This document shows, piece by piece, positions 3,011 through 50,983 of a DNA stretch of 64,000 nt. Location: assembly GCF_003334315.1 (NCBI RefSeq), contig NZ_QOWR01000012.1; one strand, given 5' to 3'. This DNA is from Escherichia coli (lineage in GTDB: Bacteria; Pseudomonadota; Gammaproteobacteria; Enterobacterales; Enterobacteriaceae). Within the stretch, counting starts at the first letter, position 1. The number at the start of each line of letters is the position of its first letter. A model generated the notes under the pieces. That model was not told the origin of the DNA. It saw only the letters and a program-made list of their open reading frames with translations, and did not search any database. A program made the position numbers and the translations under genes.

Positions 3011-3108
3011 CCTGATGCGCTACGCTTATCAGGCCTACATTTTCTCCGCAATATATTGAATTTGCGCGGTTTGTAGGCCGGATAAGGCGTTCACGCCGCA
3101 TCCGGCAT
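3011..3108. repeat. REP/BIME cluster downstream of uvrB
   Basis: gcctgatgcgctacgcttatcaggcctac ... gtaggccggataaggcgttcacgccgcatccggca; canonical REP palindromes in inverted orientation. Confidence 0.85.
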
Positions 3109-19715: not shown

Positions 19716-19815
<100 letters not shown>

Positions 19816-33053: not shown

Positions 33054-33153
33054 GCCGGATGCGGCGTGAACGCCTTATCCGTCCTACAAGTTCATGCAAT
33101 TTTAATAAGTTGCCAGATATCCTGTAGGCCTGATAAGCGTAGCGCATCAGGCA
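33054..33153. repeat. REP/BIME cluster between ybiO and glnQ
   Basis: gccggatgcggcgtgaacgccttatccg ... gtaggcctgataagcgtagcgcatcaggc. Confidence 0.85.
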
Positions 33154-44978: not shown

Positions 44979-45038
44979 GTGATTATCCGTCACCCCGATA
45001 CTGTCGGGGTGACGGCGGCTGATGACAAATGCAAAATA

Positions 45039-45144
45039 GCCTGATGCGCTAGGCTTATCAGGCCTACGCAGTACCTGCAATATATTGAATCTGCAGGACT
45101 TTGTAGGCCGGATAAGGCGTTAACGCCGCATCAGGCATTAACAA
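45039..45144. repeat. REP/BIME cluster downstream of ybiT
   Basis: gcctgatgcgctaggcttatcaggcctac ... gtaggccggataaggcgttaacgccgcatcaggca. Confidence 0.85.
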
Positions 45145-45218
45145 AGCGCATTTGTCAGCAATCTGAGTAACGTCGAATCGATTTTCTTAATCCCACATCA
45201 ATTCACTTCCATTAATTC

Positions 45219-46484
45219 TCAAACATCCATGCCCAACGCTCGCTTACCGTGAATGTTGAGGTCGGCAAGCGTAAAGCGTCCTTCCCAGTTTGTTTCATAG
45301 TCCTCGCGCGGGAAGTCGCCCGGCGATGCGCCTTTTTCCAGTGCGGCCTTCACCTTGTGCGCGTAGGCAAGATTTTTCTCGCACATCGGTGCCGCAGGAA
45401 TGTACATCACGTTGCCCCAACCTTGTTGATTTTCAACGGGGGCAACGGAATGGATGACGTCGCAGTGCCACCAGACGGAGTCTCCGGCTTCGAGTTTTGG
45501 AATGCTGGTTAACGCCTCAATCAACAGTGGATGCCATTGCTCTGATACCGGCAATACTCTTCCGGGCGCTACGCCGCACAGTTCATCCTCCGGCACATCA
45601 TCAAGCAGCGGACGTAACAGTACGTACGCCATAGCTTCAGGAATGGGCACGACGTGCAGCAGCCCCTGACAAGGCAGCATATCAGAGAGCGCTGTCCAGC
45701 CCTGGAATGTCCGAAACACGGAACATTTGGTGGTGTTGTCCACCGTGTACTCTTCAACTTCCGTACGATGTGCCGCATGCCAGGGATCATATTGCGCCAG
45801 ATTGCCATTAAAGACGTTGACGAAAACGCGCTGATACGCTGGAAGCAGCCAGCGTTCCAGTGCCCCGGAGTCGGTATGCGCTCCAAGACCTTTGGAGGTC
45901 GTTCCGGGCGGACGGCGGCGGATACGGTCAGGGTAGATGACGCTCACATCCGGGTTAAACCATTGCTTTCCATCACTTTCAAATGTCCACAGACGATTGA
46001 GAAACGACTGCGCATTCGCCATTTCTTCACTCTGGCGGGCCTGCATTTGCGCCTGCGACCAGTAGATGGGGTAAATCTCGGGACGTGAAGCGCTGAGCGT
46101 CCCGAAGAAATTATCGCCGGGGCCTTTGTAGACCTCGTCAAAGCGGTTGCGGTCCAGATAGTCCAGCATCGACTGATCCCAGCCTAGCGCTTGTTCGCGG
46201 GGGAAATGGCCTTTTATCACCGCACAACCGCGACGTTTAATCTGTTCGCGCTGCTCTGCAGTAACATGACCTGCTTTGATATCGGCATAAGACAGCACCG
46301 GCCAGACGGCATCGCCCTGTGCTTTGAGTGCGTTGATTTCAGCCACTCGCGTGGCAATGTCATCGCTTAGCTGATTAAAGATCTGCTGGACGTCGCCAAG
46401 CTGCGCCCGCAGCGCGTGCTTCATCTGACGGATAGCTGCTTTGTGATCGGCAGGCAATGTGTCGCTGGTAAAAGTAGAAGCCAT
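45219..46484 (-). CDS. ybiU: DUF1479 family protein YbiU
   Basis: Start MASTFTSDTLPADHK (421 aa). Confidence 0.88.
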   Translation of the reverse strand: MASTFTSDTLPADHKAAIRQMKHALRAQLGDVQQIFNQLSDDIATRVAEINALKAQGDAVWPVLSYADIKAGHVTAEQREQIKRRGCAVIKGHFPREQALGWDQSMLDYLDRNRFDEVYKGPGDNFFGTLSASRPEIYPIYWSQAQMQARQSEEMANAQSFLNRLWTFESDGKQWFNPDVSVIYPDRIRRRPPGTTSKGLGAHTDSGALERWLLPAYQRVFVNVFNGNLAQYDPWHAAHRTEVEEYTVDNTTKCSVFRTFQGWTALSDMLPCQGLLHVVPIPEAMAYVLLRPLLDDVPEDELCGVAPGRVLPVSEQWHPLLIEALTSIPKLEAGDSVWWHCDVIHSVAPVENQQGWGNVMYIPAAPMCEKNLAYAHKVKAALEKGASPGDFPREDYETNWEGRFTLADLNIHGKRALGMDV

Positions 46485-46499
46485 AACCACCTCTCATTA

Positions 46500-46513
46500 A
46501 CTTTCATTCGAAA
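46500..46513 (-). promoter_or_regulatory. Copy A of the 14-bp motif TTTCGAATGAAAGT, 16 nt upstream of the ybiU ATG
   Basis: Plus strand actttcattcgaaa is the reverse complement of TTTCGAATGAAAGT; followed on the ybiU strand by SD gagaggtgg. Confidence 0.6.
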
Positions 46514-46635
46514 CCATTCTGATTTGCATGTGACAATATAAGTTATAAATAAGTTAATGCAAGTTTAATGATTTGATGTGATGTACAGGATGTAAAAAGA
46601 AGGGAAAACCGGAGCGCACGGCTCCGGTAGAGAGG

Positions 46636-47451
46636 TCAGCTGTTAAAAGGGGATGTGTTATCCAGCACCGCCTGAATCACATTCAGCGCGCCTTCATGAT
46701 TATTATCATCGGTAGCGTAACGGGCGATTTGTTTAATGTTTTCCGCAGCATTGCCCATCGCAAAGGAATAACGCGCCATTTTCAGCATCTCCGCATCGTT
46801 ACCGCTGTCGCCAATCGCTACCACATTTTGCGGTGACAGATCCCAGCGTTTCAGTAACCGCGAAATACCGTTTGCTTTATGTAGACCGGGAATAATCAGG
46901 TCGATAAAGCCAAAACCACTGGTGACGGGTTTCATAATGCCATCGAGCGCTAGGTGCAGTTTGTCGATCACTAACGGGATTTGTTCATCCGGCAGGTTGA
47001 GCGAAAACTTGAACAGTACGTCGTCAATCTCCTGATAATCTTTTACAGGTTTCAGGCGATGGTAGTGTTTTGCCATCAGTGCGACAAATGCTTCGGGGGC
47101 ATTTTCGCTGACATATGCACTTTGCAGACCGCAGGCGACAAAATTGAGTTGCTTATCTTTTAGCAACTCGCCAATAACAATCCGCGATTCATGTCGGGTC
47201 AGTTCGCCGTGGAACAGTTGCTTGCCATGTTCGTAAACCAGCGCGCCGTTTTCCGCGACAAAAGAGATCTCATCTTTTAGCTCAGGAAAGAACGAAATAA
47301 GCTGGTAATACTGATTACCGCTGGCGACAACGAACTCAATGCCGCGCTTTTTCAGTTCCTGATATTGCGCCATAAAACGTGGTTGGTTGTACGTTTTGGC
47401 GTCGTTAAGAAAAGTACCGTCCATGTCTGTGACGATAACTTTTACGCTCAT
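46636..47451 (-). CDS. ybiV: HAD-family sugar phosphatase YbiV
   Basis: 271 aa; N-terminal DxDGT (VTDMDGTFL) motif. Confidence 0.9.
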
Positions 47452-47521
47452 AGATGTGCTCCTGGCTCGAAAATGAAACCGTAACAGTGTAATAACAATG
47501 TGACACAGAGCACAAATTATA

Positions 47522-47535
47522 TTTCGAATGAAAGT
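47522..47535 (+). promoter_or_regulatory. Copy B of the 14-bp motif TTTCGAATGAAAGT, in the ybiW-ybiV intergenic region
   Basis: Exact 14-mer; about 70 nt upstream of the ybiV start; a CRP-like TGTGAcacagaGCACA lies at 47499-47514. Confidence 0.6.
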
Positions 47536-47596
47536 AGGGGTGGAATTGATGATGTGAATGATTTGGCCCGGCGACGCCGCCGCCGGGCCGAGGAGA

Positions 47597-50029
47597 TTAC
47601 AGCATATGTTCAGTACGGGCGATGATATCGTCCTGAGCGTCTGGAGAGAGCGCGGTGAAGAAGGCGGAATAGCCCGCGACGCGCACTACCAGATCGCGAT
47701 ACTGATCGGGATGTTTTTTCGCCTCCAGCAGCGTCTCGCGGGAAACGATGTTGTACTGAATATGCCAGCCTTTATGCACTTCAAAGAAGGTACGCAGCAG
47801 GATCATCAGTTTCTGCTTGTCAGATTCGTTCTCCAGCGTTGCCGGATTCAGTTTCTGGTTGAGCAACACGCCGCCGAGAATCGCTGCCGTAGGCAGTTTA
47901 CCCACTGAGCCAATGACCGCAGTAGGGCCAAGATGGTCAGTACCGGAAGCCGGACTTGCGCCTTCTGCCAGCGGGGTGTGGGCTTTACGCCCGTCCGGTG
48001 TTGCCATAGTCTGCGCGCCAAACGGTACGTTAGCGGAGATAGACGACGTACCCGCGTAATAGTTGCCGCCAACCGGACCACGACCATAGCGTGGGTTATG
48101 GTACTGTTTCAGTTCGTCGATATAGGTCTGATAAGCGCGAGCCAGCAGCGTATCGACGGTATCATCGTCGTTGCCGTACTTCGGCGCACCGTTAATCAGC
48201 CGCTGACGCAGTTGCTCATGAGTCAGGCCATCGAAGTCATCCGCCAGTGCGGCAGCCAGCTGTTGCTGACCAATCGCACCCTGTTCAAACACCAGTTTCT
48301 TCACTGCCGCCAGGCTGTTGCCGAGGTTGGCAATGCCAACCTGCAGGCCAGAAACCCAGTCATATTTCGCGCCGCCTTGCTTGATACTTTTCGCTCGCTC
48401 AATACAGTCATCCACCAGCGCCGAGCAGAGAATATCGTGTACGTTCTCTTCCAGCATGGTGTCGACGACATATTCGATTTCGATTGATTTACGCGTGTAA
48501 TAACGGATTTGCGTATCCCACGCGTCCATTACTTCATCGAAATTGTTAAAGTTGCCTGCCGACAACGCTTTTTCTTGTGGCAGGAACACTTTGCCGCTGG
48601 TGGCATCACGCCCGCCTTCCAGCGCCGCCAGCATCACGCGGGCGAAGTTGATAAAGCTCATGCCGGTACAGCGATAGCCCCATTTGCCACCGACGGCGGT
48701 TTCGATACAACCAATCGCTGCGTAGTCGTAAGCGTCCTGCGGTTCAATACCGAGTTTAATAAATTCCGGGATCACGATTTCGTCGTTGTTGAACGCCGGC
48801 ATCCCGAAGCCGCAACGGATCACCTGTACGCAGGCGTCGAGGAAATCATTACTCATTCCTGCATGGTAACGCACGCTGAGGTTAGGCTGAGTGGAACGCA
48901 GGCGACCGCAGGATTCGAGGATCGCGTAAGAGAGGGGATTCACTGCATCCATTGGTTGACCATCAACCAGATTTTGTCCGCCAATGGTAACGTTCTGATA
49001 CAGCGGACTTCCCGCAGAGGCTTTTGAGTGTGAGCCGGAGCGGATCTTGTTCACTTCCAGCAGTTTCAGCCAGCAGCTATGCAGCATCTCGATGGCGTGT
49101 TCGCGATCCAGCGTCTGGTTGAGTTCAACGTCGCGGCGATAGTACGGGTAGAGATACTGGTCCATACGACCAAACGATACCGAGTGACCGTTAGATTCGA
49201 TCTGCAAAATCAATTGGATGAAGTAACACAGTTGCAGCGCCTGCCAGAAAGTCTGCGGCGGCTGGTGGGCGATAAGATCGCAGTTTTCTGCCATCGTCAG
49301 CAGTTCATCGCGACGGCTTTCGCGAGTTTCGGTAGCAGCCATTTCACGCGCCAGGGCAGCGAAACGTTCAATGTGTTCACTGACTGCCACCAGCACGATA
49401 TCAATCGCTTTCAGGAATTGTTCGCCATGTAAATCTTCCAGCACCGTCAGATTGATGCGCGAGCGACGTTCCGCTACTTTCTCACGCAGACCATCAAGAC
49501 CTTTTTCCAGCAGCAGCGGGAAATTCACCGCCAGGTGCGCATCGCCGGAGGTCATATTGCCTTCCGCTTTAATGATTCCGGTCGCCAGCAGACCTTTTTG
49601 CTCATCGGTAAACATGCCGTAGCAGCGATCCTGTACGGTCTGACCGCGCCACCACGGGCACACTTCATGCAGAACGCGTTTGTTCTCTTCGCTCACCGCA
49701 AAGCCAGCACCGGGACGATCTGCCAGATCATCAATCTCTTTTTCGATCCACGAGACAGTATATTCCGGGAAGATCGGCGCGGCGCGAACTTCGCTTGCCT
49801 GGTTGCCAATGATCAACTCATCGTGTTTGATCCAGATGGTGCGATTCGCCAGGTGATGCGCCAGTGCCAGCGCGCGACGTACCGGGATCGGCTTATCGAG
49901 ATGTTGTTGATACATCTCGGTATAGTGCTGCGCGCGCTCGGTACAGACTGGCGGTTTCACAATATGCACCAGCGCATTTTTGTGCGCTTTAATGCGGTCG
50001 CTGAGCGTGTCCAGTTTCAGTGTGGTCAT
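47597..50029 (-). CDS. ybiW: Glycyl-radical enzyme (pyruvate formate-lyase-like) YbiW
   Basis: 810 aa; C-terminal glycyl-radical signature RVAGYSAFF. Confidence 0.92.
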
Positions 50030-50934: not shown

Positions 50935-50969
50935 AGTTGCCTCTCTGTTTCGTTCAAACATTAAAATAC

Positions 50970-50983
50970 TTTCGAATGAAAGT
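50970..50983 (+). promoter_or_regulatory. Copy C of the 14-bp motif TTTCGAATGAAAGT, in the ybiY-fsaA divergent region
   Basis: Exact 14-mer; here it is a perfect palindrome in context (ACTTTCgaatGAAAGT). Confidence 0.6.

Follow-up and report, generated by a model that had tools for sequence, protein, structure and literature searches.

We detected a GC-rich RNA hairpin, GGCCCGGCGGC-GGC-GUCGCCGGGCC, at positions 47565..47589 (minus strand) of the 64-kb stretch of DNA analysed here (hereafter the window), directly downstream of the ybiW gene. The hairpin is real and non-random. Based on its position, its conservation and the composition of the flanking DNA, we tentatively propose that it may act as the protective 3' stem-loop of a Rho-terminated ybiY-ybiW message. 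It seems to be an unremarkable representative of a stem-loop class that is already known, and it has little significance beyond annotation. Should the proposal be confirmed, the hairpin would mark where the ybiYW transcript ends on its 3' side, and such a boundary would explain the separation of this operon from ybiV, a phosphatase gene under separate regulation.

The window derives from Escherichia coli, and its segment 47380-47700 matches every one of the 5,426 complete E. coli genomes compared, with an identity of 100% to strain CP53 and 97.2% to MG1655. On the minus strand, an open reading frame of 810 amino acids at 47597..50029 corresponds to ybiW, a glycyl radical protein named from the annotation of the matching E. 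coli genomes, and it is followed by ybiV (46636..47451) and ybiU (45219..46490), both assigned from the reading frames and the matching genomes. A review describes YbiW as the glycyl radical enzyme responsible for cleaving 1,5-anhydroglucitol-6-phosphate when conditions are strictly anaerobic (PMC12441222). Antisense reading frames on the plus strand over the hairpin site (47500..47625 and 47558..47908) were judged to be mechanical ORFs opposite ybiW and were rejected.

Structure of the hairpin and its terminator-like dimensions

Direct reading of the plus strand at 47565-47589 gives ggcccggcg-acgccgc-cgccgggcc, and the RNA in the sense of ybiW (minus strand) is UAA-UCUCCUC-GGCCCGGCGGC-GGC-GUCGCCGGGCC-AAAUCAUUCACAUC. 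The ybiW stop codon UAA at the end of the reading frame (47597..47599) is thus separated from the hairpin by the pyrimidine-only spacer UCUCCUC of 7 nt (47590..47596). The stem consists of 9 perfect G-C pairs, to which RNAfold adds one G-U and one C-G pair for a total of 11 pairs around a 3-nt loop, with an energy of -23 to -25 kcal/mol; a stem of this length with a 3-nt loop at a gene end is terminator-like. When the whole 159-nt ybiW-ybiV intergenic RNA is folded, the hairpin persists in the MFE structure as well as in the centroid structure (z = -3.6). An earlier note on this DNA had described the 9-bp all-GC stem at 47565-47589 exactly as it reads, had placed it 8 nt past the ybiW stop, which holds in that the first stem base is the eighth nucleotide after the 7-nt spacer, and had located it just before a "motif copy B". 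The latter is the operator-like motif CTTTCATTCGAAAT at 47534..47521 (minus strand), 30 nt downstream of the hairpin, which marks the start of a conserved ybiV promoter block and forms a boundary outside the hairpin itself. The same note regarded the element as not a typical intrinsic terminator, with which the data below agree.

The hairpin is a statistical outlier in the window. One 9-bp all-GC perfect hairpin is present in the 64 kb against 0.005 expected from 200 dinucleotide-preserving shuffles, thus chance is no explanation for it. Among the 31-nt local folds of the window, it is the most stable on the minus strand (-25.1 kcal/mol) and the second on the plus strand, and the pattern GCCCGG-N8-16-CCGGGC occurs once. 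A 41-nt query comprising the hairpin and its flanks matched one place per genome (median 1) in 5,376 of the 5,426 complete E. coli genomes, and a repeat search at the site recovered only the two arms of the hairpin. The covariance models of Rfam 15 gave zero matches over 46000-49000 of the window on both strands (E<=10). The reference record NC_000913.3 holds no annotated feature between ybiV and ybiW, which is weak evidence since the record may lack REP features altogether. An RNase III substrate was also considered and rejected, as a stem of 11 bp is too short.

Intrinsic terminators are commonly recognised by a stem of 5-14 bp, a loop of 3-8 nt and, typically, at least 5 U in the 8 nt after the stem. 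The stem-loop after ybiW lies within these dimensions, while the sequence AAAUCAUUC directly 3' of it has no U-tract: the downstream stretch AAAUCAUU contains 1 U in its first 4 bases and 3 U in its first 8. Besides, a consensus terminator scan made no call at the site, and there is no A-tract upstream of the hairpin. In E. coli, intrinsic termination requires a proximal U-tract for efficient release. It could nevertheless be argued that the hairpin is a non-canonical intrinsic terminator that alone ends a useful fraction of transcripts at AAAUCAUU, free of Rho. Its stem length, loop size and energy are all within the terminator range, and hairpins at the same position are followed by a real U-run in Citrobacter sp. 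Cu233, in FP75, in L014 and in an Enterobacter metagenome-assembled genome (L065), with GCAUUUUAGUUU, UAUUCUUCUUU and GCAUUUUUGCUUU, so that the ancestral element may have been a terminator. The paucity of U, the missing A-tract and the silent terminator scan speak against this explanation for E. coli, and we consider it distinctly unlikely. The hairpin resembles canonical intrinsic terminators in its GC-rich stem of 9-11 bp, its short loop and its location at a gene end, but differs from them in that the U-tract is absent in Escherichia. It also resembles the 'I-shaped' U-less terminators, in being placed at a gene end without a U trail; such terminators have been proposed for high-GC bacteria such as mycobacteria, and U-free termination is disputed.

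The ybiW-ybiV spacer in the Enterobacteriaceae and its relationship to REPs

A scan of one genome per species provided 80 Enterobacteriaceae ybiW loci. At 73 of these ybiV follows ybiW, on the same strand except in Salmonella enterica subsp. diarizonae (L020), where ybiV lies on the opposite strand and the two genes are convergent. Approximately 95 nt adjoining ybiV are kept across genera and contain TTTC-N4-GAAA, a TTGTGC overlapping the palindrome TGTGC-N6-TCACA, a -10-like hexamer (TAGAAT in most genera, TACACT in the window) and a ribosome binding site. The stop-proximal part of the spacer is highly variable in length and content and nearly always carries GC-rich palindromes of differing families, namely REPs of the GCCCGGTGGCGCTnCGCTTACCGGGCCTAC type, which often form inverted BIME-like pairs, GCCGGATG...CATCCGGCCTAC REPs of the E. 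coli type, and CCCTCTCCC...GGGAGAGGG repeats. This part of the spacer holds a classical terminator, AACGGCAACnnnGGTTGCCGTTTTGCTTTT, in Enterobacter and Kosakonia, among others. A loose screen for a hairpin with a T-rich tail was positive in 40 of the 56 non-Escherichia spacers, some of the matches sitting in the promoter region or using the operator T-run as their tail, and a strict perfect-stem screen was positive in 14. In the Escherichia spacers, neither screen called anything terminator-like in the stretch from the ybiW stop to the ybiV promoter. A transcript boundary after ybiW appears to be general. The comparison illustrates a theme that is already known: across the Enterobacteriaceae, one stop-proximal site has been taken by REPs, by BIMEs, by further palindromic repeats or by genuine terminators, and the Escherichia remnant at the site is a unique hairpin beyond recognition by a REP profile.

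The relationship of this hairpin to REPs was assessed with an nhmmer profile constructed from the GCCCGGTGGCGC... element, representing the canonical K/E/C-type REPs, and scored on the ybiW-ybiV spacers. This element is a genuine dispersed repeat, found on five unrelated contigs with no ybiW nearby and typically in BIME-like pairs. As an internal positive control, the Z-type REPs of the window, with GCGCTACGCTTATCAGGCCTAC tails (3017-3038, 19720-19741, 33124-33145 and 45046-45067), scored 11-15 bits. Canonical REPs of other genera, located 7-11 nt after the ybiW stop, scored 28-34 bits; at the same position, the single hairpins of the Citrobacter amalonaticus group scored approximately 15 bits, those of the loci L025 and L031 scored 3-4 bits, and the Escherichia hairpins -0.7 to -0.1 bits. 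A second profile, built from the intermediate Citrobacter forms, also missed the E. coli hairpin. Membership of the REP family was thus rejected, as two nhmmer profiles miss the hairpin and it is present as a single copy per genome. The graded series of scores at one fixed position makes descent of the hairpin from a REP plausible.

Like REPs and BIMEs, the element is an extragenic GC-rich palindrome right after a stop codon, and true REPs and BIMEs occupy this position in Citrobacter, Enterobacter, Klebsiella and others; unlike them, it is single-copy in E. coli and has neither a CTAC tail nor an internal bulge. An example of such a system is the malE-malF REP, a stabiliser of the upstream mRNA. 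[quoted passage not shown]

These observations bear on a neutral origin, in which the hairpin would be the functionless relic of a decayed REP, or of a REP-derived terminator, from an ancestral enterobacterial insertion, its symmetry being kept by DNA-level processes. Both the decay of the REP score at a single position (28-34, approximately 15, 3-4 and finally -0.7 bits) and the turnover of the stop-proximal spacer among at least three palindrome families would be expected from such a relic. However, a strong hairpin is found at the site in almost every genus despite the differing families, which a functionless relic would not readily predict. The variation within Escherichia, considered in the following section, cuts both ways, and overall we regard a neutral relic as possible but rather unlikely.

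Sequence variation and conservation of the stem

Twelve E. coli alleles were taken across the identity range and compared with five other Escherichia lineages. The 7-bp core GCCCGGC/GCCGGGC is invariant in 12 of 12 E. coli alleles and in all five other lineages sampled, and no U-tract follows the hairpin in any Escherichia allele sampled. Among the E. coli alleles, the loop, the stem apex, the spacer and the outer pair are polymorphic; the outer pair is G-C, G-U, A-U or, once, A.C, and the eighth pair is broken in one other allele. This polymorphism, and the two alleles that each break a pair, agree with a neutral relic. Invariance of the core though adjacent bases vary, and the fact that even the weakest allele folds at -16.6 kcal/mol or better, argue against it. 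In the divergent allele of strain GmM062, GCCCGGUAAC-GGUU-GUUGCCGGGC, the stem is preserved via one double and two single changes. The GmM062 spacer between ybiV and ybiW resembles those of E. whittamii and Escherichia sp. E1V33, and an IS1X4 element (2288-2985 of its locus, L002) lies between the hairpin and ybiV, ybiU being absent from the neighbourhood. In two further strains, 142 (L004) and O157:H7 AC-5 (L092), ybiW is annotated as a frameshifted pseudogene; both carry the same hairpin allele, and the hairpin and the ybiV promoter are nonetheless kept.

An alignment of 18 alleles, drawn from E. coli, from five further Escherichia-lineage loci and from four loci of Citrobacter type, has 91.4% of its cells paired, in comparison with at most 53% when the partners are slid. 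Double changes occur at three stem pairs, e.g., G-C to A-U in GmM062 and L014, and RNAalifold independently predicted the same 9-bp stem. Quasi-palindrome template switching in DNA can yield compensatory-looking changes without RNA selection. The ybiW-sense fold is more stable than the antisense fold by 0.5-4.7 kcal/mol in 16 of 17 alleles, owing to G-U wobbles. This strand bias implicates the ybiW-strand RNA and is unexpected for a palindrome that is maintained in DNA only, as the neutral relic would be.

For so short a sequence, the 7 nt that separate the stop codon from the stem are unusually polymorphic among the E. coli alleles. The variants (UCUCCUC, UCCCCUC, UCUUCUC, UCUCUUC and UCUUUUC) differ by C-to-U or U-to-C changes only, and never include a purine. 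The short distance raises the question of a stop-proximal brake on translation of the Liang/Deutscher type, by which the hairpin would obstruct the ribosome at the ybiW UAA and lead to stalling, trans-translation and lower amounts of YbiW; such a brake could also add to any role of the hairpin at the 3' end. With the stem 7 nt past the UAA, the hairpin falls inside the limit of less than 16 nt reported for REPs (PMC12306157), it is stronger than typical REPs, and many genera have palindromes 7-11 nt past the stop. The published effect, on the other hand, concerns REPs, as which the ybiW hairpin is unrecognisable, and common descent from a single insertion would account for the constant distance just as well. 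In addition, judged from ribosome footprints, a spacer of 7 nt would allow the UAA to reach the A site with no more than the outermost one or two pairs melted. We therefore consider a translational brake quite improbable.

A candidate Rho-dependent 3' end and the control of ybiV

Directly after the hairpin, the RNA enters the tract AAAUCAUUCACAUCAUCAAUUCCACCCCUACUUUCAUUC at 47526..47564 (minus strand), 39 nt that lack any G. Over 40 nt, its C minus G value reaches 13, a value within the top 0.19% of such stretches, and it contains 11 YC dinucleotides; counting the last two bases of the stem, the G-free run extends to 41 nt, the second-longest in the window. The first 24 nt downstream of the stem (in most alleles AAATCATTCACATCATCAATTTCA, the copy in the window ending in TTCCA) are unchanged among the 12 E. 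coli alleles, while some alleles carry two G inside the tract. From this composition, the tract is a candidate Rho-loading (rut-like) region, and its invariance could alternatively be caused by a role upstream of the ybiV promoter. A similar layout is seen in the 3' flank of ybiT (44986-45230, plus strand), where a hairpin of approximately -25 kcal/mol at 44988-45014, 10 nt past the stop, is followed by the Z-type REP at 45046-45067. The longest G-free run of the window, 50 nt with 15 C (45181-45230), is located after that REP.

Rho-dependent transcripts of E. coli have been shown to end precisely at stable, U-less stem-loops of terminator-like dimensions (Dar and Sorek 2018, PMC6061677). At these ends, C is enriched over G just downstream, and the diffuse tails are trimmed back to the stem-loop by PNPase and RNase II (PMC6061677); annotated REPs account for only 24% of the stem-loops concerned, and 76% are not annotated as REPs (PMC6061677). 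The ybiW hairpin shares with this class its location at a gene end, its terminator-like dimensions, the absence of both a U-tract and an A-tract, and an excess of C over G downstream. It differs in that its C-rich tract, at 39 nt, is short and leads straight into the promoter of another gene. Since every sequence-level feature of the class is found at this site, including the stable U-less stem and the downstream enrichment of C over G, and since ybiV appears to have its own promoter, we read the hairpin as a candidate for a protected Rho-terminated 3' end, with the tentativeness stated at the outset.

According to this proposal, the hairpin would form in the RNA just past the ybiW stop codon and, having no U-run, would by itself release RNA polymerase inefficiently. 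The polymerase would then continue into the untranslated, G-free and C-rich 39 nt, where Rho could load and terminate transcription at scattered positions before or within the ybiV leader. The 3'-to-5' exonucleases PNPase and RNase II would trim the resulting tail to the foot of the hairpin, leaving a defined and protected 3' end near 47560-47565. In this way, ybiYW transcription would be kept out of the separately promoted, operator-controlled ybiV, and the ybiV promoter would be shielded from read-through. The hairpin itself might originate from a single decayed REP unit inherited at this position. Rho loading, exonuclease trimming, protection and REP descent are all steps that we infer for the ybiW hairpin.

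The earlier note had suggested an RNA-stabilising 3' stem as one function of the hairpin. This is the best fit to the conservation, the compensatory changes, the strand bias and the C-rich, G-free tract, and the support for it is only comparative. What that note had missed is the positional link to the REPs of other genera and the Rho-type context. Counting against the participation of Rho, a C-rich tract of 39 nt is rather short to serve as a rut site, two G interrupt it in some E. coli alleles, and the window has a longer G-free run elsewhere. In addition, the hairpin lies only ~115 nt from the ybiV start codon, which leaves little untranslated RNA for Rho before ribosomes load at ybiV. The 3' end of ybiW has no entry in the tables that Adams et al. 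published in 2021. The probable reason is that YbiW is an anaerobic glycyl radical enzyme, whereas the mapped cultures were aerobic, a condition under which the operon is probably silent; no ybiW entry is present in the supplements of Dar and Sorek (PLoS Genet 2018), TERMITe or RepRanger.

The separate control of ybiV is suggested by the conserved block upstream of it. A putative ybiV promoter core at 47486..47515 (minus strand), with TTGTGC at 47515..47510 and TACACT at 47491..47486 separated by an 18-nt spacer, is indicated by cross-genus conservation and overlaps the palindrome TGTGC-N6-TCACA (47514..47499). A consensus promoter scan made no call for this core, and we infer the assignment of TTGTGC/TACACT to ybiV only weakly. 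The palindrome itself (47499-47514, minus strand) has CRP-like half-sites, lies over the putative -35 of ybiV, and is present in essentially all of the 60 Enterobacteriaceae spacers examined. Its position, approximately 16-21 nt upstream of the -10-like hexamer, does not match that of CRP sites for class I or class II activation.

The operator-like motif next to the C-rich tract belongs to a small set. With at most one mismatch, CTTTCATTCGAAA(T/C/G) occurs in three copies in the window, all other matches needing 3 mismatches: at 46501-46514 (plus strand) just upstream of ybiU, at 47521-47534 (minus strand) upstream of ybiV, and at 50969-50982 (minus strand) in the divergent ybiY-fsaA spacer. 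The motif has a palindromic outer TTTC...GAAA, is conserved across the Enterobacteriaceae, and is found in either orientation in other genera. YciT ChIP-exo peaks have been reported upstream of ybiV, ybiY and fsaA (PMC8464067), and this coincidence indicates that CTTTCATTCGAAA is probably the operator of YciT, a member of the DeoR family. While ybiUVWY is treated as an operon in the figure legend of one paper (PMC8464067), the conserved promoter/operator block of ybiV itself and the YciT peak make ybiW and ybiV look like separate transcription units. For the same reason, the suggestion in the earlier note that the hairpin is a processing site separating ybiW from ybiV is unsupported (PMC8464067 for the peak).

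The proximity of this block also bears on two further explanations. The hairpin could be a protein-binding palindrome at the DNA level that contributes to the control of the ybiV promoter, in line with a perfect inverted repeat that precedes the putative ybiV -35 by ~75 bp and lies beside the operator-like motif. However, unrelated palindromes replace it in other genera while the downstream promoter block is conserved, the G-U strand asymmetry points to RNA, and the motif linked to YciT is the AT-rich TTTC-N4-GAAA and not a GC palindrome (PMC8464067), making such a role exceedingly improbable. Alternatively, the hairpin, the pyrimidine spacer and the C-rich tract might act together as an insulator gated by translation, coupling read-through of ybiYW into the YciT-controlled ybiV promoter to the translation of ybiW; a ribosome at the ybiW UAA would abut the foot of the stem, and ribosome traffic would set both stem formation and the access of Rho to the tract. 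We regard this coupling as very improbable.

Downstream, ybiV is followed by a canonical-looking terminator, ACCGGAGCCGTGCGCTCCGGT plus UUUCCCUUCU, at 46598-46628 (minus strand) of the window. The Rho table of Adams et al. (2021) lists MG1655 position 859177 (minus strand), corresponding to approximately 46600 of the window and thus inside the U-tract of the ybiV terminator, with a Rho score of 3.4; this Rho termination region lies 36 nt past ybiV.
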